DNA of 64,000 nucleotides from Candidatus Yanofskybacteria bacterium (GTDB lineage Bacteria; Patescibacteriota; Minisyncoccia; 2-02-FULL-40-12; IGHO2-01-FULL-4-A), in contig JACPNJ010000005.1 of the NCBI GenBank assembly GCA_016185545.1, forward strand, positions 167,754 through 231,753, read 5' to 3'. Below, one piece after another: positions 4,769 through 35,768 of the stretch. The position numbers and the translations under genes were made by a program. The first letter of the stretch is position 1. Every line of letters starts with the position of its first letter. The notes under the pieces were generated by a model. That model was not told the DNA's origin and searched no databases. It worked only from the letters and a program-made list of their open reading frames with translations.

Positions 4769-5193
4769 ATTTCACCTTCTCTCCAGCCATAATTTAATTT
4801 TCAAAAAACTTGTTATTGAGAGTAACACGAACTATCATATTTATCAAATTCTTCAGGGGTCAAAAATTACAAACCAAGCTCACCCCCCTAATTTTTCTTC
4901 CTGTATCATGCCTTCATTACAAATTGCGGTCACTGGCTAAATTGTCGGACACAGACCAGTTCTCCGTTTGCCGCTTGCCCGCCTAAATTTTGCTTCGCAA
5001 AACTTGGGCGGGCTGACGCGTTTTCCGACTAGTCCTAGTGTTACCCGACAATTCTTAACGCCAGTTCCCTTATTTGTATAATCGGCAGATAATGTCAGAA
5101 AAATAAGGGGGTTCCGCTTAGGTTGGGTTTGTAATTTTTTAATTTTAGAGTAATTTTGGAGATTAATTTTGGAGATTCAATCTCCAAAGAGTG

Positions 5194-5354
5194 GGCTTGG
5201 TGGGCAATGCCTCATAGCACCGTCAAAAGAGTGGGTTGCACGGTTTGCGAGCAGTATAATAGTAAAACACTGCGAGCAAAATCCACGCTTTTGACGGAAT
5301 GCAGTCCGCTCGCTGGGCGGACAAATGGTGCTATGAGACATTGCCCACCAAGCC
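5194..5354. repeat. long imperfect inverted repeat / structured non-coding element
   Basis: 'gggcttggtgggcaatgcctcatagcaccgtcaaaag' pairs with 'cttttgacgg...ggtgctatgagacattgcccaccaagccc' (~29 + 10 bp arms); internal hairpins; tandem 'aattttggagatt' x2 just upstream; no ORF. Confidence 0.55.
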
Positions 5355-5391
5355 CCGTTTAGCATTTATTAAAATGTTGTATAATAAAAAT

Positions 5392-5778
5392 ATGGAAAAC
5401 GTAAATCTAACCACAATGTTTGCCTCTGCTATTATACTCTCGGGGATTTTTGTTCTTAATTTGATTGTAGGTATGTACTACGGTTTTGGCGTTCGGCATT
5501 ACTGGTTTTTCCAGACATTGCATTTTTTGGGCGGGTTTTTTGTGGCTATGTTTTTCTCAAGCCTTTTCAACTCCACCGTTTTGATTTTAATAGGTCTTGG
5601 CGTCATCAGCATTTTGTGGGAATCGGCGGAGTTTTTGATTGCGTCTATTCCGACGCTTTCAAAATACGTAAAAGAGCAGTTCCGGCTTAAAAATGTGGAC
5701 TACAAATGGGCGGACGCCTTATTTGATCTTGCTTTAAATTCCACCGGCGCGATTCTGTTTATCTATATTTTTAAATGA
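5392..5778 (+). CDS. small integral membrane protein (hypothetical)
   Basis: hydrophobic segments; start moved to Met MENVNLTT because the 5' part of the ORF overlaps the inverted-repeat structure. Confidence 0.45.
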   Translation: MENVNLTTMFASAIILSGIFVLNLIVGMYYGFGVRHYWFFQTLHFLGGFFVAMFFSSLFNSTVLILIGLGVISILWESAEFLIASIPTLSKYVKEQFRLKNVDYKWADALFDLALNSTGAILFIYIFK

Positions 5779-6497: not shown

Positions 6498-6833
6498 TTA
6501 TGGGTTACCAAGTGCGTTCCAAAATTTTGCACTCATCTCTTTAGCACTAATTTTAGGATAAACCCCAATCCTGCCGTAATGGAGTATCAAAAAAGTACGA
6601 TCATCACAAGGAATTACTTTTAAATTTTCTGGTCGAACATCATTTTCATCTAAAAACCTCATTAGTCTATTACTTTTAACCCCCGAGGAATTCAGATCAT
6701 TGACATCCAAGAAAAAACCGTGCCACTTTATTTTTTTTCTATTTTTCTCTGCGACTTTTCCATTACCCAAACTTTTTTCTTTCATAGTTTGTTTCACTGT
6801 TTGTTTCACTTTTTCCTCTTTATTCAATTGCAA
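6498..6833 (-). CDS. hypothetical protein (TTG start)
   Basis: 111-aa ORF lying directly downstream (on the minus strand) of promoter-like repeat R1. Confidence 0.4.
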   Translation of the reverse strand: MQLNKEEKVKQTVKQTMKEKSLGNGKVAEKNRKKIKWHGFFLDVNDLNSSGVKSNRLMRFLDENDVRPENLKVIPCDDRTFLILHYGRIGVYPKISAKEMSAKFWNALGNP

Positions 6834-6917
6834 AAGACCAATCTGCCGGGGCTTTTATGGCTCCCCAGCATCATAAGTAGGTTAGCATACGAGCCTATGG
6901 CGTGTCAAGAGTAAAAG
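6818..6917 (-). promoter_or_regulatory. repeat R1 copy 1 (promoter-like cassette)
   Basis: ~95-bp sequence duplicated at 8404-8500; the minus strand carries TTGACA-N18-TAACCT. Confidence 0.5.
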
Positions 6918-7924
6918 GTAATGTGCAAGCACATATGGCGGTTTTCTCCTAACATGGAGAAATGGCCATATCTATGTCAAAAACAATCAAAGAAGAACGT
7001 TTAAGATGGGTACAGCCCATAGTCAGAAAAGAGGTAAAGTTGGTTGATGCGGCAAGGGTTTGTCTCTACGGCAAGCGTACTCTTGAGAGATGGGTTGCCG
7101 CATACAAAAAGAATGGTGAAAGCGGTTTAGAACCCAGGTCTACAGCACGCAAGACCCAAAACAACGAGACACCGATTCGTATTAAAGAGCATGTAATTGC
7201 GCTCCGCAAACAAACCCATAAATGCGCTTTGAAATTGTACTGGCACATGAAGAAGGAGGGATTGATTGTTCCAGCAAGAACCATCGGTAAAATCCTTAAA
7301 CAAGAAGGGCTGGTGCGAAAGTATCGGGTTAAACGAGTAAAGTATAAATATCTCAAAGCCACGCTCAAACCAGGCGAACTTGTGGAAATAGATGTTAAAT
7401 ATGTTCCCGGAGCTGTTGCGGGACGCCAATACTTTCAATATACCGCTGCCGACAAGGCTTCGCGGTGGAGACATCTTGAAATTTATGACGAGCAGGTCAA
7501 TCATCACAGCGTTTTGTTCCTTTCAGAAATAATCAGAAGGGCGCCATTTCATATTTTAGCAATCAAAACGGACAACCATTCAACATTTACTAATTACTAC
7601 ACCGGTACCAACAAAAGAAGCGACCTCTTGGTAAAGTCGCTTCATGCACTGGATATTGCCTGCCGAGAATATGGCATCAGACATTATTTAATTGACCCGG
7701 GCAAGCCGGCACAGAATGGCACAGTAGAACGAAGCCATCGTGAAGACCAAGAAAAGCTTTATGATAAACATTCGTTCGTTTCTGAAAAAGAGTTGCGCTA
7801 CCGCGTCAGATTGTGGAATATGTACTACAACAACCTTGAACACTGCGGGTTGAACGGAAAAACGCCAAATGAGTTTATCGCAAATTATCAACTAACCCAT
7901 CCGCCAAATGTGCCTGCCTAGAAC
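6918..7924 (+). mobile_element. IS481-family insertion sequence
   Basis: ~1 kb; terminal inverted repeats 'aatgtgcaagcacatatggcgg' vs the reverse complement of 'ccgccaaatgtgcctgcctagaac'; single DDE integrase-type transposase; interrupts an R1-R2 cassette that is intact at 8404-8529; short A-rich target duplication. Confidence 0.75.
6962..7921 (+). CDS. IS481-family transposase (integrase catalytic core, DDE)
   Basis: N-terminal HTH followed by an rve core with D (VEIDVKYV), D (IKTDNHSTF) and E (NGTVERSH). Confidence 0.85.
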   Translation: MAISMSKTIKEERLRWVQPIVRKEVKLVDAARVCLYGKRTLERWVAAYKKNGESGLEPRSTARKTQNNETPIRIKEHVIALRKQTHKCALKLYWHMKKEGLIVPARTIGKILKQEGLVRKYRVKRVKYKYLKATLKPGELVEIDVKYVPGAVAGRQYFQYTAADKASRWRHLEIYDEQVNHHSVLFLSEIIRRAPFHILAIKTDNHSTFTNYYTGTNKRSDLLVKSLHALDIACREYGIRHYLIDPGKPAQNGTVERSHREDQEKLYDKHSFVSEKELRYRVRLWNMYYNNLEHCGLNGKTPNEFIANYQLTHPPNVPA

Positions 7925-7957
7925 AAAAAAACAAAACCGCCAAATGGCGGCAAATCA
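7925..7957 (-). terminator. repeat R2 copy 1 (rho-independent terminator)
   Basis: minus strand: ccgccatttggcgg hairpin followed by ttttgtttt. Confidence 0.6.
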
Positions 7958-8042
7958 GTTGGTTAGTAATTTTTGATAAAGTAGGCCCAAGCGAAGTCGT
8001 AAAGACACTCCATAATAAAAAACGAGGTGTTTCCTCGTTCAA

Positions 8043-8390
8043 TTAATTCAACCTGTTTACTATAAAAGTTTTATCTAGTTTTTCTCCTAACATGGGGGAA
8101 TATTTTTTTGTTTTCCAGAAACCAGGTTTTTCTTTAGAAACCTTCCACCTGCTACCATTAGATAAAGTGACTATCCAATAATCTATTTCCCTAGTTATTG
8201 CAAATTGAGGGACGGTTGTTTCTATAAAACTATATGACTCAATTTTTGTTATGCTGTATTTGGAGTTTTCTAGAAGTACTCTTTGTATTACTTGACCGTT
8301 TCTCACAAAATAATAAAATGCTGGAATAGCAAATATAAGAAAAAATATCAGCATTTTTGCCCAAGGATTAATACTATTAAGTTTTAACAC
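8043..8390 (-). CDS. hypothetical membrane-anchored protein (GTG start)
   Basis: 115 aa with an N-terminal hydrophobic helix; downstream of R1 copy 2. Confidence 0.4.
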   Translation of the reverse strand: MLKLNSINPWAKMLIFFLIFAIPAFYYFVRNGQVIQRVLLENSKYSITKIESYSFIETTVPQFAITREIDYWIVTLSNGSRWKVSKEKPGFWKTKKYSPMLGEKLDKTFIVNRLN

Positions 8391-8403
8391 AATATCCTCC
8401 TTT

Positions 8404-8500
8404 TTTATTCAATTGAAAAAGATCAACCTGCCGGGGCTTTTATGGCTCCCCAGCATCATAAGTAGGTTAGCATACGAGCCTATGGCGTGTCAAGAGTAAA
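8404..8500 (-). promoter_or_regulatory. repeat R1 copy 2 (promoter-like cassette)
   Basis: near-identical to 6818-6917. Confidence 0.5.
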
Positions 8501-8529
8501 AAACAAAACCGCCAAATGGCGGCAAATCA
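8501..8529 (-). terminator. repeat R2 copy 2 (terminator; contiguous with R1 here)
   Basis: identical to 7925-7957; follows the stop of 8549..8863 on the minus strand. Confidence 0.6.
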
Positions 8530-8548
8530 TTTTTCTTTTCAAGATGAT

Positions 8549-14244: not shown

Positions 14245-14280
14245 AGAACCCGTTTTATAAGCGGGTTTTTATATTTTTTA
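14245..14280 (+). terminator. rho-independent terminator
   Basis: aacccgttttataagcgggtt hairpin followed by tttatatttttt. Confidence 0.75.
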
Positions 14281-14291
14281 CAAACTACCGA

Positions 14292-14462
14292 TTACCAGTT
14301 ACTAATATACCCGTCAATCGTCTTCTTGAGTCCCTTTCTGAAATCGGTTTTTGCTTTAAAACCGAATTCTTTTTTTGCCCTGTTGACATCAAGCATTCGG
14401 CGCGGCTGGCCATCGGGCTTGGTTTTGTCCCAAACAATTTTTCCTTTATATTGCGTAACCAT
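14292..14462 (-). pseudogene. C-terminal remnant of a GDP-L-fucose-synthase (Fcl)-like gene
   Basis: minus-strand translation [56 protein letters not shown] aligns with the C-terminus of the fcl gene at 17329..18258 ([38 protein letters not shown]); only the last ~57 codons are present. Confidence 0.6.
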
Positions 14463-14558
14463 AGTAGTTTCCTCAACGTCATAATAAAATAATACAGCCG
14501 TTTAACTGTTATTGGACTGTTTTTATTTAATTTGATATATTAGCTTCACTCAATTAAA

Positions 14559-15272
14559 ATGATAGATACAGCAATAATCTTAGCGGGTGGAAGAGGGCTA
14601 CGACTAATGCCCCAAACGGCCGAACAGCCAAAAGCTATGGTTAAAGTTTTGGGTCGCCCGATGATTGAATGGATAATACTTTGGCTTAAAAAAAATAAAA
14701 TAACGAACATAATCGTAAGTGTAGATTACAAAAAGGTAAAGTTGATGAAATATCTGGGAAATGGTAAAAAGTTTGGAGTAAATATATGCTATAACGACCA
14801 CGCGGGAGCGTCAGAAACAGGAGATGCATTTCGCAGTGTCTTTTTAAATATAAAATCTTTGCCAGATGTTTTTGTAGCGATGAATGGGGATCAAATTACA
14901 AATCTTCCAATCAAAAAACTTGTTGCCCACCACAAGAAACATGACCCGATAGCAACCATAGTGACCTGCCCTATAAAAAGTCCATACGGAATAGTCACTC
15001 ACAACAACCTTAATCACTTGGTCAAAGATTTCAAAGAAAAGCCTATTCTGCCGAATATTTACATGAATACCGGTATTTACATTTTCAACAAAAAAATCAT
15101 TAAGTATCTGCCGCAAAAAGGGTCAGTAGAGAGAACGACTTTCAAAAAATTAATCAGAGAACAAAAACTCAAAGCTTATATTCATAGGGGACTATTCGTC
15201 ACGATAAACGACAACAAAGACCTGCAAGATACTGAAAGTATTTTAACCAAATCAAAAATTAATTTTTTATGA
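14559..15272 (+). CDS. sugar-1-phosphate nucleotidyltransferase (GDP-heptose/mannose-1-P guanylyltransferase-like)
   Basis: N-terminal AIILAGGRGLRLMP nucleotidyltransferase motif. Confidence 0.7.
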   Translation: MIDTAIILAGGRGLRLMPQTAEQPKAMVKVLGRPMIEWIILWLKKNKITNIIVSVDYKKVKLMKYLGNGKKFGVNICYNDHAGASETGDAFRSVFLNIKSLPDVFVAMNGDQITNLPIKKLVAHHKKHDPIATIVTCPIKSPYGIVTHNNLNHLVKDFKEKPILPNIYMNTGIYIFNKKIIKYLPQKGSVERTTFKKLIREQKLKAYIHRGLFVTINDNKDLQDTESILTKSKINFL

Positions 15273-15274
15273 AT

Positions 15275-15381
15275 CCCGTTAGAAATTAATCCTAACGGGA
15301 ATAAAAGGTATTTTATTAATATAAGATTGTGAGCTTGCCACCTGTTTAAAGTGGTGGACAGTCCGCAAAACTTCTAACGGG
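15275..15381 (+). repeat. family A palindromic junction element, copy A1
   Basis: terminal inverted repeats cccgttagaa.../...acttctaacggg; inner stem ccacctgtttaaagtggtgg; sits between the TGA of the upstream gene and an ATG. Confidence 0.8.
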
Positions 15382-15669
15382 ATGAATCCCGTACGAACCA
15401 AAACGTTCTATTATGCATATGTAATACAAAGCAATAAAGATGGGCGTTTTTATACAGGTTTTACGGTGGATTTACGGAAGCGCCTTAAGGAGCATAATGA
15501 AAGTAAGTATATTTCTTGGACAAAAGGAAGGGGACCGTTTGACCTAATTTATTATGAAGCCTGCAAAAACAAAGAAGATGCCAGGCAAAGAGAAAAATAT
15601 CTTAAAACAGGACGAGGCAAGCGCTTTATTAAAGAAAGATTAAGGCGCTTCCTGGTTCGTACGGGATGA
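15382..15669 (+). CDS. GIY-YIG nuclease superfamily protein (YhbQ/COG2827-like, 95 aa)
   Basis: YYAYVIQSNKDGRFYTGFTVDLRKRLKEHN = GIY-YIG motif block; the ORF runs exactly between the 12-bp inverted repeats. Confidence 0.8.
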   Translation: MNPVRTKTFYYAYVIQSNKDGRFYTGFTVDLRKRLKEHNESKYISWTKGRGPFDLIYYEACKNKEDARQREKYLKTGRGKRFIKERLRRFLVRTG

Positions 15670-17319: not shown

Positions 17320-18258
<939 letters not shown>

Positions 18259-18260
18259 AT

Positions 18261-18381
18261 CCCGTACGAGACACAATGAGTAAACACACAAAAATGGCCG
18301 GTGGCCGGAGTGTCTTTACTGGATAAAATGATAAACTAACTAGGCACGGTTGCGACAGAGTCGCAACCTGTCTCGTACGGG
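18261..18381 (+). repeat. family B palindromic junction element, copy B1
   Basis: terminal inverted repeats cccgtacgagaca.../...tgtctcgtacggg; internal ggttgcgacagagtcgcaacc hairpin; TGA-element-ATG placement. Confidence 0.8.
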
Positions 18382-19431
18382 ATGAAAATATGTTATCTAA
18401 ATATAACCAGGGAAATCCCCCAGCGGGATGTAGTTTATATAAACGGGTTAAAGGAAAATGGTGTTGAAGTAATAGAAATTTTAGATAATTCGCCAAAGTT
18501 AAAAAAATTCTGGCATATTTTTAAAAAACATCGCGCCTTAAACAACAACTACGACATTTTGTGGGTCGGATATTCTGCCCACATACTTGCGCCCTTCGCC
18601 CGTTTAATTTCCAGAAAAAAAATAGTTTTCAACGCACTCTGCTCATTGTACGAGGGACTGATTATATCGCGCAAACAAGCGCCACGGTTTTCACCAAAAG
18701 CTTTTTTGGTTTGGTTACAGGATTTTTTGTCATTTCATTGTTCCTCGTTAATACTTGTGGAAAGCGAGGAACAAAAAAAATTCCTTATCAAAAAGTTTTT
18801 TCTGAAAGAAAAAAAACTGCAAAAAGCTTGGACGGGAGTTAATGACAGGGACTTTTTTTATAATCCGGCAATCAAAAAATCGCCTGTCTTTTCTATAATT
18901 TTTCGCGGCGGATTTCTTCCCGAATCAGGAATTGAACACGTTGCTGAAGCCGCCTCACTTCTTCAAGATGAGAACATACGATTCAGAATTATAGGCACCG
19001 GTGTTATGGAAGATGCCCTAATCAACAAGCTCGCTACTTTTAATTCTAAAAATGTTGAATTTATTTCCGAAAAAATCAAAAGAGTCAGCCGCCCCGAACT
19101 TAACATTAAAATGCAGGAATGCCACATATCGTTAGGCCAGTTATCTGACCACGACCGCCTGAATAGAACCATTCCTCATAAGGCATTCGAGAGTATGGTT
19201 ATGAAAATTCCATATTTGACCGCGCGCAATAAAGCCGTACTGGAATTATTCGCCGAAAACGAAACTTGCTTTTGCTGTAACCCGGCTGACTCTCGTGATT
19301 TGGCCGATAAAATTATTTGGATAAAAAATAATTATGAAACGGCTCAAAAAATCGCCGAAAACGCTTATCAATTATACTCACGCGAACTAACCCCGAAAAT
19401 ACTTGCGAAAAAGGTATTAGAATTGTTTTGA
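18382..19431 (+). CDS. family 1 (GT4-like) glycosyltransferase
   Basis: GT-B C-terminal domain FISEKI...; 349 aa. Confidence 0.6.
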   Translation: MKICYLNITREIPQRDVVYINGLKENGVEVIEILDNSPKLKKFWHIFKKHRALNNNYDILWVGYSAHILAPFARLISRKKIVFNALCSLYEGLIISRKQAPRFSPKAFLVWLQDFLSFHCSSLILVESEEQKKFLIKKFFLKEKKLQKAWTGVNDRDFFYNPAIKKSPVFSIIFRGGFLPESGIEHVAEAASLLQDENIRFRIIGTGVMEDALINKLATFNSKNVEFISEKIKRVSRPELNIKMQECHISLGQLSDHDRLNRTIPHKAFESMVMKIPYLTARNKAVLELFAENETCFCCNPADSRDLADKIIWIKNNYETAQKIAENAYQLYSRELTPKILAKKVLELF

Positions 19432-21348: not shown

Positions 21349-22440
21349 TTACCCTTTTTTATTTAGATTACTTAATATAACATCAATTTCTTTTTTAGCC
21401 ATGTCAAGTGTTATATTTTTCACATCGCCATCGGTACCCTTGAGAACGCGATTAAGTGATCCTGGCGGGCGGTGATACTCTCGCTCATCGGTGGGCCCAA
21501 CTAAGACAAGGTTAGCCACATCAAAGGCATCAGCCGTTACCATTGGGCCGGAATCATTGCCTATGACAAGATCACACTTTGAAATCGCGGCCTTAAATTC
21601 ATCTAGGTTTTGATTAAGCAGGTTAACCGCCGGAACGCCGTCTAAAACCGCGAGCATTGCTGTTATCGGCCCCTCATCTTTACCGGCACCAACAAGCAAA
21701 ATCTTAGCGTTTTGTTCTTCGTAAAAAAATTTAGCTAATTCAGCAAATCTTTCCGCCGGCCACCAGCGCTCGGGCACCGCGCCACCCGGCGCAAAAGCAA
21801 CAATAAAATCGTCCACCGACATATTATTTTGAGTGAAAACATTGTTGATTTTATTTTCAGCTTCTTTGGAAAAATATAACCGGAAATGAGCATCGCCGGT
21901 ATTGGCATTAATTGGCTCCAGCAACTTAAGATATTGTGGCGGGACATATTGACCGGTATAAAACGGCGATGTGATTGCAAATGTTTTTAGAATTGAATAA
22001 GAAACCGAAGTATCTCCTTTGCCGCTCTCGAGTGAAAAAGTAGAAATGGTTTTAATGCCGGCAAGGTATAGCAGAGCAAAACCCATTGTACTGCCAAGAT
22101 TGGCCAAACAAGCAAAATCAATTTTTTCTTTTTTTAATAGTTTAACGACGGTCCAAAAGTTATTTTCGTAATTTATATATTTATCTATATCCGGGTTGTG
22201 TCTGATCACTTCTTCTACCCGACCAGCACCAATAACATATAGTCTGCTATCTGGATACCTGGTCTTAATGGCCCTGAACATGGGCGTGATATAAACAACA
22301 TCGCCCATGTGCGGTTTCCAGCGCAAGATAAGAATCCTTTTGGGGTTTGAGGTAATTTTTTTTGCTCTGCCGCGGAATAAATAATATAAAAGACACAATA
22401 ATAAACTGCCAAGATTTGTAAATTTACTGGATAATTTCAT
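21349..22440 (-). CDS. family 9 glycosyltransferase (ADP-heptose:acceptor heptosyltransferase-like)
   Basis: ILILRWKPHMGDVV and LVIGNDSGPMV GT9 motifs. Confidence 0.75.
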   Translation of the reverse strand: MKLSSKFTNLGSLLLCLLYYLFRGRAKKITSNPKRILILRWKPHMGDVVYITPMFRAIKTRYPDSRLYVIGAGRVEEVIRHNPDIDKYINYENNFWTVVKLLKKEKIDFACLANLGSTMGFALLYLAGIKTISTFSLESGKGDTSVSYSILKTFAITSPFYTGQYVPPQYLKLLEPINANTGDAHFRLYFSKEAENKINNVFTQNNMSVDDFIVAFAPGGAVPERWWPAERFAELAKFFYEEQNAKILLVGAGKDEGPITAMLAVLDGVPAVNLLNQNLDEFKAAISKCDLVIGNDSGPMVTADAFDVANLVLVGPTDEREYHRPPGSLNRVLKGTDGDVKNITLDMAKKEIDVILSNLNKKG

Positions 22441-22547
22441 CCCGTTAGAAGTTTTGCAAACCGGCCACCACTTTGAACAGGTGGCAAACTCACAAATTTT
22501 ATATCAATAAATGCCCTTTATTCCCGTTAGGATTAACTTCTAACGGG
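22441..22547 (-). repeat. family A element, copy A2
   Basis: near-identical reverse complement of A1. Confidence 0.8.
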
Positions 22548-22549
22548 AT

Positions 22550-23407
22550 TCATTTCCTTAAAGTTACGCAAGCCACTGCTCTGGCGGCGGCCACCCCGTC
22601 ATCGTTAATTTTTTTGCCGGTACGGATGTTAAAATATTCCAAACCATCGCATTGCTCCTGTTCACTTATCTGCCAACCATCTTTTGAGTACTTATAGAAA
22701 ACAGTATTAAATTCGGCGGCGCCGAAAGCATCGGCAACTTTTTGCACCATTTGTGAATTAAACTGCTGAAAAAAACCATGGTTTTCGTATCGGCCGAACG
22801 GTACGGTAATAAAAAGTGTTCCGCCCGGCTTCAACATTCTTTTCATTTCAAGAACCGCCGGCAGATAATCGCCGCTGTTTTCCTTGAACCGGTTTTCACC
22901 GGTATATATTTGCGTGTTATCCATTCCTATATGCTCAAGAGTGGAGACACAGGAAATTATATCAAAATTATCGCTTTTGAATGGTGCTTTTCTTATATCG
23001 CTATAAACATACGATACTCCTTTATTCCAAAAACAATTTGATTCCGGATTGAGATTCATTATAAAAAGATTCTTGGGGACAATATTTTTATGTTCAATAA
23101 TTTCCTTAAAATTAAGGGCCGAACCGGCATCCAACATTTCCACACGGTCACCACCGATTTGGGAAATAACCCATGGAATTTCAATGATTCTTTCATCAAT
23201 TCCAATGCCATATTTTTCGGGCAACTTCCCATTATTTTTAAACAGTCTCGATAGTTCATTATTTTTAAGAACTGCGCCAATTTCACGCCATTTATATTCA
23301 AAATAACCCCTGCTCCAAGGCTTGCGGCCGTGCAATTCGTAGGATAATAAATTTCTTCTAGCAATTAAACTTTTTGCAAAATATCTTAATTTTTTGTTAA
23401 ACCCCAT
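22550..23407 (-). CDS. SAM-dependent methyltransferase
   Basis: class I methyltransferase fold (LDAGSALNF...KPGGTLFITVP). Confidence 0.6.
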   Translation of the reverse strand: MGFNKKLRYFAKSLIARRNLLSYELHGRKPWSRGYFEYKWREIGAVLKNNELSRLFKNNGKLPEKYGIGIDERIIEIPWVISQIGGDRVEMLDAGSALNFKEIIEHKNIVPKNLFIMNLNPESNCFWNKGVSYVYSDIRKAPFKSDNFDIISCVSTLEHIGMDNTQIYTGENRFKENSGDYLPAVLEMKRMLKPGGTLFITVPFGRYENHGFFQQFNSQMVQKVADAFGAAEFNTVFYKYSKDGWQISEQEQCDGLEYFNIRTGKKINDDGVAAARAVACVTLRK

Positions 23408-23512
23408 CCCGTTAGAAGTTTTGCAGACCGTCCACCACTTTAAACAGGTGGCAAGTTCACAAGCCTTATATCAATAAATACTTTTTCCCCGTTAGGCTTA
23501 ACTTCTAACGGG
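23408..23512 (-). repeat. family A element, copy A3
   Basis: same termini and interior as A2. Confidence 0.8.
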
Positions 23513-23513
23513 A

Positions 23514-24725
23514 TTAAGCAATACAAATGAAAACTTTACTAAAAATCTCGTTAATCGGCTTCTGATATTTTATCACGAAAAGTTCGCCGTTGTCGTAAAT
23601 TTGGAACACGGTTTTATTGAGGCCCAAGAGCGGTTCCCAAATTTTATTATAAAACCAGCTTGCTTTGGTAAACCGGAAATCGTCATTGTTTGAATAAATC
23701 TGGTTTTCGGAATTGTAGTGGTAGTTGAAGTCCCTTTCGGTTATAAACCCGAGCTGCCTGTTACGCCGATGATATGACAGAAAACAATTTTCAAGAAAAT
23801 CCACTTGGGAAAAAGATATTATCATATCATCCGGATTGACATTCATTTTTTTAACGGCCAAAGCGATTTTGAAATTATTAAATAATTTGCGCGGTTCCAA
23901 TGAATAAAAGATTCTTGGAAAAAATTTAATCTCATCAAAGTACTCCCTTATATCGTCTGGTTTTACAAAATCCCAGCGAGGATGGCGGGAAACGACCAAG
24001 TTTATCTTGGTACTAGGCAAAAAAGACCTTATAAAACGCGCCAGGGATACCGCACTAACCACAAACTCCGTATGCGAAAGGACAAACCAAACTTTACCGT
24101 GAAAATCGGAAAATAGTTCGCGTATATTACGCTCAAAAAGTTCATCTTTTGCGGTGGCTATTCTATTTTCAACAAGCTCTTGTTTGAGGTCGGTTATAAA
24201 AAGTGAGCTTGGCACTTTTGCAAAATATGTTTCGGTAGTCTCAAAGTACTTGTCATTATAGACATTTTTAAAAAGCCGATAAAATAGGTAAGCATTCAGA
24301 CCGAAGCTATAGGCGGAAACCGCCGATGTTGAGTTCACGGCAAAAACACATTTAATTTTTGGAAGATTTTGCCACAAAAACAGTTCAGCCGTTGTTTTGT
24401 CTTGGATTAAATTAAAACCATTTAAGTTTAAAAATAATTGTTTTTTTTCATCAGATGGATGCGGTTTATAATAAAGATCGTACCCACCAAAATTCCGGCG
24501 AATATAATCAAGGCACTCGTTGCATTTAGCAACATAAAACTCCTTGTCTGCAAAACCTGAAGCCAGAATGCCTTTCATATCACTGCCCATAAAAACAACC
24601 ATTTTCGCGCTAAAACCGCTTTTAGAATCCGGTTCTTTTTTGTTTAAACTCAACAAATGAGGCAGTGAAATCCTGACGACATTATTTATTTTTTTATTTA
24701 TACCGACAAATTTTCTTATATCCAT
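23514..24725 (-). CDS. hypothetical GT-B-like transferase with a KPHP motif (paralog of 36483..37706)
   Basis: shares CLDYIR...YDLYYKPHP..FLNL with 36483..37706; HP motif as in CMP-sugar/CDP-alditol transferases. Confidence 0.45.
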   Translation of the reverse strand: MDIRKFVGINKKINNVVRISLPHLLSLNKKEPDSKSGFSAKMVVFMGSDMKGILASGFADKEFYVAKCNECLDYIRRNFGGYDLYYKPHPSDEKKQLFLNLNGFNLIQDKTTAELFLWQNLPKIKCVFAVNSTSAVSAYSFGLNAYLFYRLFKNVYNDKYFETTETYFAKVPSSLFITDLKQELVENRIATAKDELFERNIRELFSDFHGKVWFVLSHTEFVVSAVSLARFIRSFLPSTKINLVVSRHPRWDFVKPDDIREYFDEIKFFPRIFYSLEPRKLFNNFKIALAVKKMNVNPDDMIISFSQVDFLENCFLSYHRRNRQLGFITERDFNYHYNSENQIYSNNDDFRFTKASWFYNKIWEPLLGLNKTVFQIYDNGELFVIKYQKPINEIFSKVFICIA

Positions 24726-24845
24726 CCCGTATGAGACAGGCTGTGATTCTGTCGCAACCGTACCTAGTTAGTTTATCATTGTATCCCGTAAAGACACTTC
24801 GGCCACCAGACCTTCTTGTGTGTTTACCCTTCGTGTCTCGTACGG
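24726..24845 (-). repeat. family B element, copy B2
   Basis: cccgtatgagaca...tgtctcgtacgg; the interior matches the reverse complement of B1. Confidence 0.8.
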
Positions 24846-24871
24846 AATCCATGAGTAAATCTCCGAAAGCC

Positions 24872-26107
24872 CTATTTAGTTTTATAAGCAATGAAGTCTA
24901 CGTGACGAACACCGCATGCACCCTTGAAGAGGTGTTTACATGAATCAATATATGCCTTGACTTCATGTAGGTCTGAATTTTTAACCAAATATACAAATTG
25001 CTTCGCTTCTTTAATAAATTCTGATAACCGAGTTTGCAATGGCTCTAAAACCGATACTTCCTCAAAAGACATATCAACCGCATCAGCTAAATTATTAAAT
25101 TTATCCGCATTAAGTTGAGACTTGGAATTGAAATTTGCAACATAACTGGTCAAGTCTGATAATTCCTTTGAATATTTAAGATAGCCCCCGCCTAGCGCTT
25201 TAACATTTTCCAAATCACCATCTTTTTGTAACAGCCATACGGTTTCTGCAAGAGCAGGCATTCCCGGTATTTCGGCAACATCAAACTTTAACTTATGATG
25301 CACGGAATCTCCAATTACTGGCATTAAAAATGGCGGATAACTTGAATAAAGTTTCAAATTATTTTCTTTTAGCCATTTTAATGTCTCCGCTACGGAAGGA
25401 TCGTCTTGGCTTTGAATTACCCAACGGTCAAATATTATTGCTCTTCGGGTCCGTTTGATAGCCACCTGACTTCGGTCAATATCTTCCTTAAAAAGTTTTT
25501 CACATACATCCACCATATCATCCGGCGATTTGGCATAGTGATACACAGCAAAACGCTGAAGCATGTTTTGAAAACCACCTGCTTTATTAGGATCCCCAAA
25601 AATTAGAAAACCGCCCGGTTTAAGAAATTTGGCAATTTTCTTGAACGCTCCCCGGTTATCTGCAGTATGACTCAAAACTCCTCTACAATGGACGATATCG
25701 TACTTTACAGATGAATCATAATCAAAAATAGATGATTTGATAAACTTGTGCGTACCGCCATTAGAATAGCGCTTAAAAACTTTTTTTGCTATGGCAAGCG
25801 CTTGATCGTTCATCTCTACAAGCGTGCATTTGGCGCCCCATCGCGCTAAAGAAATCGTATTCTCTCCGGTACCAGCACCGAAGTCAATAAGATTGGCATT
25901 AGCAAACATTTTCGGCGGAAATTTAAACAAATCTCTATACATGTATAGCACATTAGCCGTATACTGACGGAATTCTTTTTCTGATTTATCAGAAAAATAA
26001 ATTGAGGGGATTTCCTCCTGAAATGTGCCGAGGGTAGCTTGTTCGACCCGCTTGATTTTAGCAAGTCTTATAGTTTTACTCTTGTGTTTAGTTGATATTT
26101 TTTTCAT
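24872..26107 (-). CDS. SAM-dependent methyltransferase
   Basis: LIDFGAGTGENTISLA motif I; 411 aa. Confidence 0.6.
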   Translation of the reverse strand: MKKISTKHKSKTIRLAKIKRVEQATLGTFQEEIPSIYFSDKSEKEFRQYTANVLYMYRDLFKFPPKMFANANLIDFGAGTGENTISLARWGAKCTLVEMNDQALAIAKKVFKRYSNGGTHKFIKSSIFDYDSSVKYDIVHCRGVLSHTADNRGAFKKIAKFLKPGGFLIFGDPNKAGGFQNMLQRFAVYHYAKSPDDMVDVCEKLFKEDIDRSQVAIKRTRRAIIFDRWVIQSQDDPSVAETLKWLKENNLKLYSSYPPFLMPVIGDSVHHKLKFDVAEIPGMPALAETVWLLQKDGDLENVKALGGGYLKYSKELSDLTSYVANFNSKSQLNADKFNNLADAVDMSFEEVSVLEPLQTRLSEFIKEAKQFVYLVKNSDLHEVKAYIDSCKHLFKGACGVRHVDFIAYKTK

Positions 26108-26226: not shown

Positions 26227-27360
26227 TTAATCGCAGTAGCTTTCAAGCTTACTATCCCGAACCGTATCAAGAGTACTGCAATGAATACCACCCATAAAAT
26301 AAGAATGCCTGAATGATATCGGGATAGGAGTAATTCCGTGTTTCTCAAGTATTTTCATAAGAGGAATCTGAATTTTATCTACAATGACATGCCCGGGATC
26401 AATGGATAAAAAATTCATTCCAATCCAAGGAGAACTGATGGAGCCAAGGCCGGATTTAACTCCCAGCTTTTCAAGTTCCAGATGAGCCGGTTTTCTGACC
26501 TTTTCGTGAATATCCAAGGTCCTCTGTGGCGTCGGAACAATATCGGAAAAATATATCTTGTCCCATTTTTCAAAAACCGGCGGACAGGTCTCGGGACTGA
26601 CCCGTGTAGCATTCAGCATAACCAGACCCGGACGCAATGCCATGGCTGTTGAATCTATGTGGCTTGAGCGATAGATCTCGCTCGTAGTATGGACCCTATA
26701 TTCATCACCCAAAACACTCTGGAGCCATTTGGCGCCGATATTATTACCGGACCGAGAAACAAGATATAAAAGATCCTTGCCCATTCTTAAAGTATTAGCG
26801 GCTTCAAATAATATCTCATCTTCAGTCAGTCGTGTGTATTTTTGTCCGTCATCATATTGGGATTTACCCTCAACGGTATAAACTTCCATGTGGTCGCCTG
26901 GCACGCGCGGCTTAGGACCGGCTACCCACCTAAAACCGCCTTCTTTAAAATACTCGTACAAAACCGGATATAAACCCATGGCTTCAAAATACCTGTGCTG
27001 TTCCTGCGACGGTGATTCAATGACATTACCGCCGACCACTAAATGCAGATCCCTCATATTATAGACATGGTCACCGACTGCGGAGAAAAATGGTGTCGTA
27101 AATAATTTATTGTTATGGGAAATATCGGGACGAAACACTTTCACGCCAAACGATTTTAAAACATTACAAAGCCCCTCTAAATCTTCGTTAATTTCATCAG
27201 TAAGCCACTGGGGATAAGCCTGGCGGGCTAATTTAACTGATTTTTCTAAAAGATCTTCTGAAACTAAGCCATGTTTAAATACCAAGGGAGCATGGCCATC
27301 TCCCCGGCCAACAATTATTTCTCTCAATTTATCCCACTCATTGTGGCTGTTTATTTTCAT
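26227..27360 (-). CDS. amidinotransferase-family protein
   Basis: N-terminal INSHNEWDKLREIIVG (amidinotransferase signature) and C-terminal GGIHCST catalytic-Cys motif. Confidence 0.65.
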   Translation of the reverse strand: MKINSHNEWDKLREIIVGRGDGHAPLVFKHGLVSEDLLEKSVKLARQAYPQWLTDEINEDLEGLCNVLKSFGVKVFRPDISHNNKLFTTPFFSAVGDHVYNMRDLHLVVGGNVIESPSQEQHRYFEAMGLYPVLYEYFKEGGFRWVAGPKPRVPGDHMEVYTVEGKSQYDDGQKYTRLTEDEILFEAANTLRMGKDLLYLVSRSGNNIGAKWLQSVLGDEYRVHTTSEIYRSSHIDSTAMALRPGLVMLNATRVSPETCPPVFEKWDKIYFSDIVPTPQRTLDIHEKVRKPAHLELEKLGVKSGLGSISSPWIGMNFLSIDPGHVIVDKIQIPLMKILEKHGITPIPISFRHSYFMGGIHCSTLDTVRDSKLESYCD

Positions 27361-27483
27361 CCCGTTAGAGGCAGGTTACGCTCTTTGAGCGTAACCGTAC
27401 CCAAATAGTTTAAATGATAATTCCCGTTTGTATGTTTCTTGCACCGCTATTCTTGATTAATTGCCTGTTGTGCCTCTAACGGG
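27361..27483 (-). repeat. family A variant element, copy A5
   Basis: termini cccgttagaggc/gcctctaacggg; internal ggttacgctctttgagcgtaacc hairpin. Confidence 0.7.
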
Positions 27484-28584
27484 ACGAGTCATCATTCTCA
27501 TTATATTAGCATGGTCTTCTCTGGCAATCTCGTATTTGCTTTTATTCAACTGGCTTGGATCATCCCGTACGAGACAGGTTGCGACCCTGTCGCAACCGTG
27601 CCTAGTTAGTTTATCATTATCTCCAACAGGGACACTCCGACCACCGGCCTTTTTTGTGTGTTTATTCGTCGTGTCTCGTACGGGATCATCCCTAGGAAAC
27701 ATATTGGATTTAAAACCGCATTCAACGCCCAATTGACTTAAAATCTTAAGAGTACTGTCATTGTAAGAATTGGCAGGATGGGCCATGTCCACGGGCGGCC
27801 TGCCGCAAACTCTTTGTATGTGTTCATAATTTTTTTGATACTCTTCTTGCTGTCGTTCAAAAGGAAGTTCGGCAAGCATCATGGGGTGTGAATATGAATG
27901 CAGTCCGATTACATGGCCTTGCCTATTTAAGTAAGCAAGGTTTTCATTTGACATCCATATGTTTTTAGAAAGATCGGCCAAATTCAACCCTTGGTCTTGA
28001 ATAATCGCATCCATAATTATTTCAAATTCCTCACGGCTTAACACGCGATCCCTAATCAAACGAAAGCGCATGTCATTGGTTGAGTAAAACGGGAAAGTCT
28101 TGGAATACCTTACCATATCGGTCTCTTCTAAAACTTTCCTGGCATTATTTCCAAATTTTGATTGAAAAATTTTATCAAAAAAAATATTGTAAAAGTCATC
28201 AATATCTTTAAAAAACTTAGAGCGAAAAACCCGATAAATTTCAAATTTGCCAAGGCCGCCCTCAAATACACTGGAATAGACGAACCAAAATGCTTTTAGG
28301 TTGTACTTGTCCAAAACCGGCAAGACAACATCAAATTGACATAATAGCCCATCATCCAGGGTTATGCAAACATCCCGATTGGTTAATTGGTTCGCCCCCA
28401 ATCGCTTAAGCCATTCTTTAGGATCAAGTATCCGATCTAATCCTACAAACATAAGAATGGCTTCAAAATCCGACATTGATATCGAACCTTGCCCTTTGTA
28501 ATGTTTCCGTTCGTCATGAAAATGATGGAACATTATCCCGTGAGCAACCGAACTGAGATATTTTTTTTTAGATAATTCGCTCAA
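27457..28584 (-). CDS. polysaccharide deacetylase (NodB-homology domain); the 3' ~230 nt of the ORF reads through elements B3 and A5
   Basis: ITLDDG NodB motif and HSYSHP His motif; the frame stays open through the repeat elements, so the true C-terminus is uncertain. Confidence 0.6.
   Translation of the reverse strand: MSELSKKKYLSSVAHGIMFHHFHDERKHYKGQGSISMSDFEAILMFVGLDRILDPKEWLKRLGANQLTNRDVCITLDDGLLCQFDVVLPVLDKYNLKAFWFVYSSVFEGGLGKFEIYRVFRSKFFKDIDDFYNIFFDKIFQSKFGNNARKVLEETDMVRYSKTFPFYSTNDMRFRLIRDRVLSREEFEIIMDAIIQDQGLNLADLSKNIWMSNENLAYLNRQGHVIGLHSYSHPMMLAELPFERQQEEYQKNYEHIQRVCGRPPVDMAHPANSYNDSTLKILSQLGVECGFKSNMFPRDDPVRDTTNKHTKKAGGRSVPVGDNDKLTRHGCDRVATCLVRDDPSQLNKSKYEIAREDHANIMRMMTRPVRGTTGN
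27564..27684 (-). repeat. family B element, copy B3
   Basis: cccgtacgagaca...tgtctcgtacggg; in tandem with A5. Confidence 0.8.
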
Positions 28585-29725
28585 TTTTTTTAATATCTAA
28601 ATAATCCTCGGAAGAAAAACTTAAACCCGAGGTAATTTTTTGAAAGCCCTCGTAAAAACGCGGCTCACTGACAAGGTTATGAATATTGGCAGTTGGTACA
28701 AGAATCAACATTTCATTATTAACCCATGCTTCTTTATTGGAGTCGTTGGAACCCATAAGAGCTTCGTGCAGTTTGTCGCCGACACGATCTCCAATGTATT
28801 TTATTTTTATCACAGCCCCAGAAGACCGCTGCTTCAGTCGTGGATGATTGGGTCTTCTGGGGCTGGATTCCGCCCCACGGTCAAGCCGCCAAGCTTGACT
28901 GTGGGTGATGGTACCACGGGCTTGGCCGTGGGGCTCCATTTTTTTTCCAGAGTAATATTTTTTTATAAATATACTGGCTAGATCTCCCAAGCGGATTGAC
29001 GGCATTTTCAAAATAAAAATTTCACCGCCCGAACAAAGCTGGGCCGCTTTCAGAGTCAAACTAACGGCTTGTTTTATGGACATGAGAAAGCGGGTCGCGT
29101 CTTTGTTGGTAACATTAATCGCGCCGCTGGCTTCTACTTGTTTTACCCACATCGGCAGTACTGAACCATCGGCCCAGGCAACATTGCCGAATCTTACACA
29201 GGCAAGCTTCATTTTATCTCCCAGAAAAAAACTGGAATTTATAAAAAGCTTCTCCATCATAAGCTTGGAAGCGCCAAGCACATTTAAGGGGTTGGCAACT
29301 TTATCCGTGGAAATGGCAATAATTTTTTCAACACCGGCGTGCAAAGCCGCGTCAATAATATTATGTGAACCGACAATGTTAGTTTTCATCGCTTCTGACG
29401 GATTATACTCGCAAAACGGAACATGTTTTAAGGCGGCGGCGTGAAAAACTATGTCTACATTTTTAAAAGCAAGATGTAAACGCTCTTGGTCTCTTATGTC
29501 TCCAATCAACATCCTTAAGTTTTTTGGGTAACGAAGCGCCTCCAATAGGTGGTATTGGCGTGTTTCATTTCTGGATAAAACCCTGATCTGCTTCGGCTTG
29601 GACTTTAAAAGCTGGCGAACCAGTTCTGCGCCAATACTACCAGTGCCTCCAGTTACCAAAATGGTTTTATTTTGAAACTCGTTAATCATAGAAAACAACT
29701 TAAAAATGCAAACCTCAAATCTCAA
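28568..29725 (-). CDS. UDP-GlcNAc 4,6-dehydratase (PseB/FlaA1/CapD-like), with an in-frame 43-aa insertion
   Basis: ILVTGGTGSIG...VLSRNE...HAAALKHVP...YIGDRVGDKLHEAL; 385 aa versus ~335 for homologs. Confidence 0.75.
   Translation of the reverse strand: MRFEVCIFKLFSMINEFQNKTILVTGGTGSIGAELVRQLLKSKPKQIRVLSRNETRQYHLLEALRYPKNLRMLIGDIRDQERLHLAFKNVDIVFHAAALKHVPFCEYNPSEAMKTNIVGSHNIIDAALHAGVEKIIAISTDKVANPLNVLGASKLMMEKLFINSSFFLGDKMKLACVRFGNVAWADGSVLPMWVKQVEASGAINVTNKDATRFLMSIKQAVSLTLKAAQLCSGGEIFILKMPSIRLGDLASIFIKKYYSGKKMEPHGQARGTITHSQAWRLDRGAESSPRRPNHPRLKQRSSGAVIKIKYIGDRVGDKLHEALMGSNDSNKEAWVNNEMLILVPTANIHNLVSEPRFYEGFQKITSGLSFSSEDYLDIKKIERII
28811..28939 (-). repeat. GC-rich triple-hairpin element inserted in-frame in a coding sequence
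   Basis: 129 nt at ~62% GC versus ~40% background; stems gccccagaagacc/ggtcttctggggc, cccacggtcaagc/gcttgactgtggg, ccacgg/ccgtgg. Confidence 0.6.
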
Positions 29726-30150
29726 AATGTAATTTAAAATTCCAAACTATTTTCTGCCTTTCATGGTTAGTACGCCAGCGCCAATAATTTTAGAAATTTC
29801 TTCGGCTTCTTTAAGCAATGGGTTAATTTGATTTCTTAAATTAGGCGTACTTTCAATGAGCAAAATCAACCAATATTTTGTCTCATTAGAACTCTTAAGA
29901 GCAATCTGAAAAAATTTTAAATAATCCAATTTTGAGCTAGCGGCTCGAGCTTCGAAAACGTTGGCTCCAACTGAAGTTGCAGATCGAATCAGTTGATCGG
30001 CTATCGCCCACAAATTCCTACTTTTTCTTACTTCTCCACAAAGTTTAATTATTGCTAAAGAAAAATCAATAAGCCGTTTATTAAATTGCATTTTAAAATT
30101 TACATTTTCATTTTGCATTTTGAGATTTGAATTTTGAATTGGGTAATTTT
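29703..30150. mobile_element. inverted-repeat-bounded module carrying a four-helix-bundle (23S rRNA IVS-type) protein gene
   Basis: AT-rich inverted-repeat arms with core caaatctcaaaatg (29703-29746; 30092-30150, reverse complement) flank the ORF. Confidence 0.55.
29747..30118 (-). CDS. four-helix-bundle protein (23S rRNA intervening-sequence protein family)
   Basis: WAIADQLIRSATSVGANVFEA...YLKFFQIALKSSNETKYWL is characteristic; the first 9 codons lie in the inverted-repeat arm, so the probable start is MQFNK (~30091). Confidence 0.7.
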   Translation of the reverse strand: MQNENVNFKMQFNKRLIDFSLAIIKLCGEVRKSRNLWAIADQLIRSATSVGANVFEARAASSKLDYLKFFQIALKSSNETKYWLILLIESTPNLRNQINPLLKEAEEISKIIGAGVLTMKGRK

Positions 30151-35680: not shown

Positions 35681-35768
35681 AAATTCAAAAAGCAAATCTC
35701 AAATCTCAAAATCTAATTTATAATTAAAAACTTTCATTTTGGATTTTGAGATTGAAATTTTGAATTTT
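35681..35768. repeat. 'caaatctcaaaat' AT-rich palindromic hairpin (empty copy of the 4HB-module inverted repeat)
   Basis: gcaaatctcaaatctcaaaatc ... gattttgagattg. Confidence 0.65.

Follow-up and report, generated by a model that had tools for sequence, protein, structure and literature searches.

Start-codon-associated fold-back elements share their ends and two-stem architecture with a GIY-YIG nuclease cassette in Candidatus Yanofskybacteria

A 64,000-nt stretch of contig JACPNJ010000005.1 from a Candidatus Yanofskybacteria genome (GCA_016185545.1; hereafter the window) contains three copies of a palindromic element, B1 to B3. They belong to a class of polar two-stem fold-back units that are located at (A)TGAA sites, mostly at start codons, lie in sense orientation, rebuild the ATG and have the same architecture as a nearby cassette consisting only of a nuclease gene. 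We consider it fairly probable that B1-B3 are non-autonomous copies (~123 nt), similar to MITEs (miniature inverted-repeat transposable elements), of a fold-back superfamily in candidate phyla radiation (CPR) bacteria/Patescibacteria, whose coding member is a 280-nt cassette with nothing but a 95-aa GIY-YIG open reading frame (ORF) and whose nuclease is proposed to act on the folded single strand. The elements are probably mobilised by this nuclease. The B copies are located as follows.

18260-18382, + strand: B1, TCCCGT...ACGGGA; left arm 18259-18273, inner hairpin 18348-18368, right arm 18369-18383
24725-24847, - strand: B2; right arm 24724-24738, inner hairpin 24739-24759, left arm 24834-24848
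27563-27685, - strand: B3; right arm 27562-27576, inner hairpin 27577-27597, left arm 27672-27686

The initial annotation had described three palindromic copies of about 120 nt at these places, and all three were recovered, with lengths of ~121-123 nt and terminal inverted arms of 15 nt (ATCCCGTACGAGACA / TGTCTCGTACGGGAT). Aligned in gene sense over ~125 nt, they showed a mean column identity of 89% and pairwise identities of 82-91%. The arm sequence CCCGTACGAGACA, with at most 2 mismatches allowed, occurred 10 times in the window against 0.40 expected, and none of 100 shuffles reached 10. These matches comprised the six B arms, the two arms of the GIY-YIG ORF and two non-B sites at 8682 and 51578. 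The match at 8682 was rejected as an element because it is solo and lies inside coding-like sequence, and that at 51578 was rejected as a B copy because it is part of a different small palindromic element. The internal hairpin and the 'tagttagtttatcat' motif reported earlier were found in all three copies: the hairpin, GGTTGCGAC-AGA-GTCGCAACC, adjoins the right arm, and the motif is the other strand of an invariant core, AATGATAAACTAACTAGG. Folding of B1 far stronger than in shuffles was predicted for both strands, as RNA (z = -7.8 and -8.5) and as DNA (z = -7.7 and -8.9). The look-alike small ORFs (SRTRQVATLSQPCLVSLS) that had also been pointed out run antisense to the local genes and into unrelated flanks, and are a trivial result of the repeat similarity.

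B1 is bounded by direct repeats of TGAA (18256-18259 and 18383-18386); its left TGA is the stop codon of an epimerase gene (17329-18258), and its right ATG (18382) starts a glycosyltransferase gene (18382-19431). B2 is the most decayed copy, with 2 arm mismatches and TGGA at both flanks, and its ATG (24725-24723) starts the gene 23514-24725. B3 has flanks of ATGA and ATGAT, lies away from any gene start and is located in frame within the 3' end of a polysaccharide deacetylase ORF (27457-28584, -). Therefore, the TGA-element-ATG placement initially given for the family holds fully for B1, whereas B2 has TGG on its left (the upstream stop is 16 nt earlier) and B3 has no gene after it. Reading through B3, the deacetylase ORF continues into the 5' portion of D1 (the diverged B-like element listed below), so that ~76 residues are added after its domain.

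The putative autonomous partner of the B elements lies at lower window positions.

15387-15666, + strand: GIY-YIG cassette; ORF 15382-15669, 95 aa, single domain

Its ORF spans one ATGA to the next ATGA, and its arms, ATCCCGTACGAACCA (15386-15400) and TGGTTCGTACGGGAT (15653-15667), lie within the first and last codons. The 5' codons ATG AAT CCC GTA CGA ACC form the left arm, and the right arm, GGT TCG TAC GGG ATG A, is read across codon boundaries. The ends common to B and this unit had been noticed before as a 9-nt identity, but the identity is in fact longer, with ATGAATCCCGTACGA (15 nt) on the left and TCGTACGGGATGAA (14 nt) on the right. The protein matched the Pfam GIY-YIG domain (8.8e-17, residues 10-77 of 95), and its best matches among solved structures were 1zg2 (3.9e-14), 1ywl (1.5e-6) and Slx1 (1e-4). 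A total of 1499 homologues were found, and a protein of a Candidatus Yanofskybacteria metagenome-assembled genome was 100% identical. Among 27 of them, most start with MNPVR and all but 3 end with RFLx(L/R)TG, indicating that the arms are part of the ORF across the family; the C-terminal L or R (CTA ACG versus CGT ACG) goes with N-terminal GTT AGA versus GTA CGA. In an 88-aa homologue (P0021), Y6, Y17 and E64 have the same residue numbers as in SsnA, a small GIY-YIG nuclease of Neisseria (PMC11893778).

A second stem lies inside the ORF. In the window cassette, its 13 bp are formed by GGAAGCGCCTTAA (15476-15488, codons LRKRL) and TTAAGGCGCTTCC (15640-15652, codons RLRRF), 150 nt downstream, and both stems form when the cassette is folded in silico as single-stranded DNA (z = -5.1). 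The inner stems of other cassettes are GGAAACGCCTTAAAC/GTTTAAGGCGTTTCC, GGAAACGCTTCAA/TTGAAGCGTTTCC, GGAAGCGTTTTAAT/ATTAAAACGCTTCC and AATTTTAACC/GGTTAAAATT. In an alignment of 8 cassettes, 86% of the cells in the outer and inner stems were paired, versus 32-48% when the partner was slid by 1-3 columns. Moreover, 13 of the 30 pairs change on both sides, and none of 500 shuffles matched the observed covariation, the structure having been read from those same 8 sequences.

The GIY-YIG nuclease was the only protein found between these arms, and it fills the cassette from the first to the last base at 10 loci. The flanks pair across the ORF in the window and at L124, L132, L133 and L136-138, and the arms are partly decayed at L098, L112 and L079. 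No GIY relatives were found in viral contigs. An identical GIY protein (P0081) had the same context in all 24 contigs that carry it, giving no sign of recent mobility. Cassettes recur between sugar-nucleotide genes (epimerase / nucleoside triphosphate transferase) in independent CPR genomes (L132, 10001-10357; L136-L138, 10001-10285), just as in the window, and the nuclease ORF of L132 (118 aa) carries a 66-nt element fused to it in frame. At L133, the cassette lies between PEP-utilizer paralogues, and a Y1_Tnp (IS200/IS605-type) gene (14273-14812) is located 4 kb away.

A metagenome scan with a pattern covering only the termini gave at least 120 loci, mostly from groundwater and sediment; all element counts of 116-124 used here, and the fractions taken from them, are among the matches listed. 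The interiors at these loci are extremely diverse across families. The common ends are ATGAA-TCCCGT(TA/AC)GA...TC(TA/GT)ACGGG-ATGAA, and pairing of the arms spans 13-15 bp. The two variable arm positions, which are almost always complementary, read TA/TA in 111/124 elements and AC/GT in 9/124, and the free arm positions were Watson-Crick in 360 of 372 cells. Outer-stem mismatches were G-U in 4 cases and A-C in 3, with no strand asymmetry. Conservation of pairing rather than of sequence, in the arms as in the inner stem, together with the absence of a G-U bias, agrees with a structure at the DNA level and not with an RNA or a double-stranded protein site. A perfect local hairpin of at least 6 bp adjoined the right arm in 30/122 elements, versus 4/122 at the mirrored left position (p = 6e-6). 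The inner-stem sequences are many and different, typically with ACGG before them (the L-R codons TTA CGG of the cassette) and CC-T after them. Additionally, an unpaired C and T internal to the right arm are conserved at 76% and 73%, and correspond to the TTC CTN (F-L) codons of the cassette 3' end. An inner stem on the right-arm side only, together with the unpaired C/T, gives the element its polarity.

B and the GIY-YIG cassette thus have in common the arms, the ATGAA flanks, the unpaired C/T by the right arm and an inner stem adjoining the right arm; the inner hairpin of B is the second stem of the cassette with a shortened loop. The rare CGTACG arm variant (9/124) occurs in both B and the resident GIY cassette, and it is again common to a MITE and the adjacent GIY cassette at the independent locus L132 (p about 0.005 for the two-locus co-occurrence). 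These shared features support the idea, already put forward from the window sequence, that B elements are non-autonomous derivatives or partners of the GIY-YIG unit. Alignments of the B interior with the GIY ORF scored below shuffles (z about -1). Since no residual ORF similarity is left in the interior, B is not a recent simple deletion derivative of the ORF, and that origin was ruled out.

Outside the window, the B core matched two loci (L002 and L003) among species-representative genomes, one genome being another Yanofskybacteria and the other a 'Saccharibacteria' metagenome-assembled genome. Both copies carry the CTAACG arm variant and ATGA at both sides. The family therefore has further copies, as the initial annotation had led one to expect, in addition to the at least 120 superfamily loci. 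In the B family proper (B1-3, D1, L002 and L003), the outer stem was 98.9% paired and the inner hairpin 96.3%, with 3 pairs showing compensatory changes in each, and the 5' branch was unconserved.

Within the window, a scan for the shared terminus found 9 related elements in 15.27-27.69 kb, a 12.5-kb part of a polysaccharide cluster, in the order A1, GIY-YIG cassette, B1, A2, A3, B2, C1, D1 and B3, and 0 of this ATG-flanked class in the other 51 kb. All 9 are sense to the local genes, in line with the orientation first noted for B, and all terminate in ...ACGGG with ATG directly after; most start with ATGAA-TCCCGT. The related elements other than B and the cassette, including a sister class with similar arms, are the following.

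15274-15382, + strand: A1 (family A, a sister family within the superfamily); its arms read CCCGTTAGAA..., and it forms a tandem with the GIY cassette
22440-22548, - strand: A2 (sister family A), where genes 22550-23407 and 21349-22440 meet in an ATGA stop/start junction
23407-23513, - strand: A3 (sister family A), with the TAA that stops gene 23514-24725 on one side and the ATG of gene 22550-23407 on the other, without left ATGAA
26107-26214, - strand: C1, a further family of the same superfamily, right ATG starting gene 24872-26107
27360-27484, - strand: D1, diverged B-like element, CTAACG arm variant, without left ATGAA, right ATG starting gene 26227-27360
Window 51573-51640; L072 404-467; L082 705-771; L136 4716-4843: sister class with terminal C...G, not T...A, small palindromes off start codons

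In D1, pairing of the inner hairpin (GGTTACGCTC-AAA-GAGCGTAACC) is kept through compensatory changes, and in-silico removal of the element restores a CG-ATGA stop/start overlap with gene 26227-27360.

Gene junctions had been proposed as the sites of the elements, which was borne out, but the stop/start arrangement is not the rule. In 108 of 116 scorable elements, the right ATG opens an ORF of 60 codons or more (control frames, 0 and 11), and an upstream ORF ends in the left TGA in only 26/121. The placement rule is the start codon of the downstream gene, with the stop/start overlap as a subset. The base after the right ATGA was A in 119/119 elements, though it had been left open in the pattern. 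Unoccupied ATGAA sites at the same loci were 7% at gene starts (162), 8% intergenic-like (180) and 85% intragenic; the gene-start to intergenic split was 162:180 for these sites and 108:8 for the elements (p = 4e-26). Selection against intragenic insertion alone predicts ~47% of elements at starts, whereas 93% was observed, indicating something beyond simple tolerance.

At gene starts in ~140 fetched CPR loci, Shine-Dalgarno-like motifs were near background (12% versus 7%), and a -10-like box was present in 14%, with a spacing to the ATG of 4-10 nt and most often 6 nt, which suggests that leaderless genes are widespread in these CPR bacteria. Among the elements, such a box lay 4-10 nt ahead of the left ATG in 27%, versus 14% for ordinary gene starts and 3% for random positions (p = 4e-4), suggesting that many target genes are leaderless. 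Inside B, neither a promoter nor a terminator was convincing (the regional promoter count was 35 versus 34 in shuffles, and the regional terminator count was slightly above shuffles). The best sigma-70-like site of 15-28 kb (TTGCCA-16-TATAAT, 11/12) is located at 27500-27527 (-), where 75 nt separate B3 from D1; the -10 box of this site precedes an ATG at the left edge of D1 by ~7 nt, a layout as in a leaderless transcript.

The mobile nature of the B elements is well supported. B is a short non-coding unit with terminal inverted repeats (TIRs), its copies occupy unrelated sites (B1-B3 and D1, at 4 gene junctions), and orthologous sites in other Yanofskybacteria are empty or differently occupied, as foreseen for a mobile element in the initial annotation. 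At the tpiA-pgk junction of Yanofskybacteria L003, a B-like element lies between the ...AELQ end of TIM with its stop and the MKTILD start of PGK; in Yanofskybacteria L128, the junction is element-free and the genes overlap in a single ATGA(A), and in L129 and L130, also element-free, the PGK start is a bare ATGAAA. Similarly, the start of the glycosyltransferase gene downstream of B1 in the window is a bare ATGAGG in L141 and carries a different, 72-nt in-frame superfamily element in L142. That element (L142 2501-2578, Yanofskybacteria GCA_016181175.1) lengthens the annotated glycosyltransferase by 24 residues (MVNPVRGLARDIVASPKDLGGATSNG + MRFCY...), an annotation artefact. One BLAST match in the fetched loci, L120, was rejected as an empty site, being a decayed upstream copy instead. 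TGAA or ATGAA stands at both sides of most elements, and because the element could itself carry these bases, such flanks are uninformative on target duplication. Informative flank repeats are the TGGA/TGGA of B2 and the 4-bp direct repeats of the sister class off ATG, namely TTGA (window 51573-51640), TTTA (L072), TTGA (L082) and TATG (L136-138). Tandem arrays were found at A1 plus the GIY cassette and at L098, L012 and L132, which is consistent with every insertion forming the target anew on either side.

In the mechanism we propose, the nuclease would recognise the folded single-stranded element through its outer stem, inner stem and flanking ATGAA, and would cut at the stem base beside ATGAA; cutting of a folded single strand is suggested by the precedent of the Ssn family (PMC11893778). 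A further (A)TGAA site would then receive the element, either by copying or by relocation, and 4-5 bp would be duplicated there. With ...GGGA as the last bases of the element, the duplicated TG(AA) would rebuild an intact downstream ATG, and the left copy would preserve either the TGA that stops the upstream gene or the initiation signals present originally. An insertion at a start codon would then do almost no harm, which would explain why those persist. The left ATG opens a short MNPVR... ORF (median 23 codons) that stops within 10 nt of the right ATG in 48/121 elements, because TCTAACGGGATGA has TAA and TGA in two frames, the third being the gene frame; in B1, this ORF stops ~55 nt earlier. 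Coupling to the left MNPVR... ORF, RNase III processing or a hop between the AUGs are possibilities for downstream translation. A 'three-frame stop module' was considered and rejected, since all three sense frames were stopped in 54/122 elements and all antisense frames in 100/122, with no enrichment.

Several observations weigh against this reading. GIY-YIG enzymes are DNA hydrolases for which, to our knowledge, strand transfer has not been described, which leaves the joining step unexplained. The link between nuclease and movement is drawn from shared ends and architecture, and the source genome was read over 64 kb. The B interior lacks detectable similarity to the GIY ORF, and 3 of 10 informative left junctions (A3, D1 and L142) are without the expected direct repeat. 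The start-codon bias exceeds what tolerance alone predicts, so the model is short of either a targeting step or a function. Additionally, the nearest solved or annotated relatives of the protein are UPF0213 (BH0048, YazA) and Slx1, YazA being among the best annotated plasmid-gene matches, and the published pattern of the Ssn-related motif (SRM), HGTCWYN(0-2)YYVSBRHN(0-5)WNVSBRGN(0-2)RNCYNB, had 0 matches on both strands of the window, where 0.25 is expected at random.

The B elements might instead be ordinary MITEs mobilised in trans by a conventional DDE or HUH/Y1 transposase elsewhere in the genome, with the GIY-YIG ORF as a passenger. TIRs with 4-5 bp flanking direct repeats are the classic DDE signature, an rve-type transposase is encoded in the window (6962-7921), a Y1_Tnp gene lies 4 kb from the GIY cassette in L133, and we know of no strand transfer by a GIY-YIG enzyme. 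We nevertheless regard this explanation as unlikely. The rve insertion sequence ends in GCACATATGGCGG / CCGCCAAATGTGC, which bear no relation to the B arms, and the rve transposase, the only one found in the window, was discarded as the mobiliser. The cassette encodes a GIY-YIG domain only, and no Y1_Tnp (PF01797) was detected in the 41 window ORFs scanned against Pfam or NCBIfam, a scan that covered about half of the ORFs of at least 150 aa. Strict polarity relative to an asymmetric target, and a structure kept by covariation rather than sequence, are unexpected for a symmetric TIR/DDE system; no protein other than the nuclease was found between the arms, and it fills the whole cassette at 10 loci; and the arm variant co-occurs with the nuclease variant at 2 independent loci (p about 0.005). 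The rve/DDE insertion sequence itself (~6917-7925, ORF 6962-7921; region 6819-8532) is inserted into a copy of a 129-nt repeat; another copy of the repeat, which is intact, lies at 8404-8532 (97% identical). It is likewise rather unlikely that the repeats mainly serve the host as recognition sites for a domesticated nuclease of single-stranded DNA, along the lines put forward for NTS/SsnA in Neisseria, and that, placed around surface-polysaccharide genes, they modulate the recombination of single-stranded DNA that enters the cell or is being replicated, mobility being historical; this is partly compatible with mobilisation by the nuclease. Such a role would fit the concentration of 9 elements in 12.5 kb of polysaccharide cluster against 0 of the ATG-flanked class in the other 51 kb (where 51573-51640 holds a small relative whose arms are similar), and GIY cassettes are again beside sugar-nucleotide genes at the independent loci L132 and L136-138. 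In Neisseria, NTS cluster near surface/virulence genes, and SsnA lowers transformation by NTS-flanked DNA (PMC11893778). However, elements are also found at housekeeping genes such as pgk and, in the at least 120 metagenome loci, at very diverse genes, copies within the genome are 82-91% identical over the whole unit, beyond a binding site, although interiors otherwise vary freely, and a restriction-like role leaves the precise start-codon placement unexplained.

That the element acts as RNA, as a structured 5' leader or intercistronic module controlling translation or processing of the downstream gene, appears very unlikely. The elements are invariably sense and end right at the ATG, the predicted folds are very stable (RNA z = -7.8 for B1), the right AUG is half buried in the stem, the short ORF from the left ATG stops within 10 nt of the right ATG in 48/121 elements, at the TAA of TCTAACGGG or the TGA of ATGA, and 27% of the left flanks have a -10 box in leaderless-type placement. 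Against this, both strands fold equally well, stem mismatches show no excess of G-U over A-C (4 versus 3), interiors are unconserved between families, and the same arms enclose a protein gene. No Rfam family was found in the whole window at the gathering threshold, unrelated downstream genes and empty orthologous sites point to insertion and not regulation, and RNA is untouched by Ssn enzymes. Integron-type attC sites marking gene cassettes would share with the elements an imperfectly palindromic build of 60-130 nt, a place at gene junctions and a single orientation, and GTTAGA and TCTAAC resemble the core sites GTTRRRY and RYYYAAC. In an attC site, which lies at the 3' end of its cassette, RYYYAAC comes first and GTTRRRY last. 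Here the motif order is reversed, with GTTAGA at the 5' side and TCTAAC at the 3' side, which contradicts attC; the core sites do not accommodate the CGTACG variant, the elements are at gene starts and not gene ends, and no tyrosine-recombinase/integrase match was obtained in the 41 scanned ORFs, which again cover about half of those of at least 150 aa. An attC origin is thus extremely improbable.

A bolder form of mobilisation by the nuclease is, in our judgement, possible but tentative: the 95-aa GIY-YIG ORF, whose first and last codons form the terminal stem, may be a complete autonomous transposon, the smallest known, which would move itself and its ORF-less derivatives as folded single-stranded DNA, specifically into start codons that it rebuilds, possibly with a dedicated ribosome route to the rebuilt AUG (coupling, processing or hopping from the left AUG). 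If true, prokaryotic transposition would gain a new enzymatic class that relies on a GIY-YIG hydrolase, and this would give Ssn/UPF0213-type nucleases a primary biological role. It was only in 2025 that small GIY-YIG nucleases tied to hairpin repeats were characterised; what they do outside Neisseria is still open, and the mobility of 'repeat-nuclease-repeat' units was left as a hypothesis. To that hypothesis, this locus and its relatives add orthologous sites without an element, separate insertions at one and the same start codon, apparent duplications at the flanks and ORF-less copies with the two-stem architecture of the cassette. A 95-aa protein, a 123-nt substrate and a 5-nt target make a clean experimental system, and the nuclease/hairpin pairs could widen the toolbox of programmable single-stranded-DNA cutters. 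Insertion at ATG(AA) with the start codon regenerated is a selfish-DNA strategy for which no earlier description was found, here in very compact CPR genomes. In practical terms, the repeats break metagenome assemblies, and Logan contigs from the same population indeed break inside B1; they also create false N-terminal (L142) and C-terminal (ORF 27457-28584) annotation extensions.

The region of 12-35 kb in the window is a polysaccharide/lipopolysaccharide-type cluster with epimerases, glycosyltransferases, methyltransferases and the deacetylase. ARAGORN found neither tRNA nor tmRNA in the window. The same cluster carries a second system of the type 'small ORF cassette plus ORF-less copies'. 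A 23S_rRNA_IVP-family ORF (29747-30118, -; region 29698-30140) is flanked by inverted AT-rich repeats (AATTCAAAATGCAAATCTCAAATCTCAAAAT...), and ORF-less palindromic copies of the bracketing repeat occur at 3 further gene junctions (35682-35769, 37713-37800 and 59297-59343). A 23S_rRNA_IVP gene is also close to the GIY cassette in L136. Additionally, a 29-nt inverted repeat (5193-5221 / 5327-5355), whose arms are 97% complementary and separated by 105 nt, overlaps the beginning of ORF 5299-5778.

Among known systems, the B elements and their cassette appear to work most like Ssn/NTS and more distantly like IS200/IS605 with REP/RAYT. The Ssn enzymes (Chenal et al., Nat Commun 2025, PMC11893778) are single-domain GIY-YIG proteins of 94 aa that bind their hairpin repeat only as single-stranded DNA and ignore double-stranded DNA and RNA. 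They require a non-palindromic 5' flank, cut a few nt upstream and still cleave when the stem is made of two separate strands. The repeat is present on both sides of the gene in 42% of homologues, and the authors themselves remark on the IS-like NTS-ssnA-NTS layout. Common to them and the system described here are a ~94-aa single-domain GIY-YIG protein with catalytic Tyr, Tyr and Glu, a gene between inverted repeats that also exist as many ORF-less copies, repeats made directional by non-palindromic flanks, a stem that can form from separated halves, and clustering near surface-structure genes. Moreover, the gene-proximal end here (bottom strand, TTCAT-CCCG...) resembles the NTS 5' half (GTCAT-TCCCG...). 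In size and architecture, the GIY-YIG protein resembles the experimentally characterised Ssn single-stranded-DNA nucleases, the clade cd10448, of which it may be a member; the SRM pattern is unmatched here. The elements differ as well: NTS/SRM are local hairpins of 20-50 nt, whereas the arms here lie 100-260 nt apart around either the whole ORF or a non-coding body of ~100 nt, the nuclease has the arms as its first and last codons and a second stem inside the ORF, whole units are copied in a MITE-like manner, insertion at start codons rebuilds the ATG, and the hosts are CPR bacteria.

By sequence, the best matches of the protein are UPF0213 (YhbQ/YazA/BH0048) and the GIY-YIG (URI) domain of Slx1, a structure-specific nuclease; unlike the cassette, these are not known to have their own flanking inverted repeats, a multi-copy state or mobility, and the function of UPF0213 is unknown. 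IS200/IS605 and REP/RAYT are likewise small elements recognised as folded single-stranded hairpins, inserted in strict orientation by a short specific target (TTAC, TTGAT), with ORF-less palindromes far outnumbering the gene. However, they use an HUH/Y1 transposase with covalent intermediates and no target duplication, whereas a hydrolytic GIY-YIG enzyme and flanking direct repeats are found here. Correia/NEMIS, ERIC and the RPE of Rickettsia are also multi-copy TIR units of 100-150 nt that are co-transcribed with genes and sometimes read in frame, as are B3 and the L142 element, but start-codon targeting with ATG regeneration, a single gene orientation and ends in common with a nuclease-only cassette are not known for them. 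Free-standing homing endonucleases and bypassed inserts (T4 mobA/gene 60, mitochondrial 'byps') similarly place a nuclease gene between host genes without disruption, or a hairpin insert between identical short flanks, and one may speculate that ribosomes bypass from the left to the right AUG here, as at byps; homing endonucleases need long homologous flanks and one cognate site, whereas these elements occupy hundreds of unrelated sites. A GIY-YIG nuclease with hairpin repeats is thus already known, and what is new is an ORF enclosed by its own arms, a stem embedded in the ORF and ATG-regenerating targeting of start codons; full-text literature searches found no description of these CPR elements, whose closest functional counterpart would be the Ssn/NTS pair.

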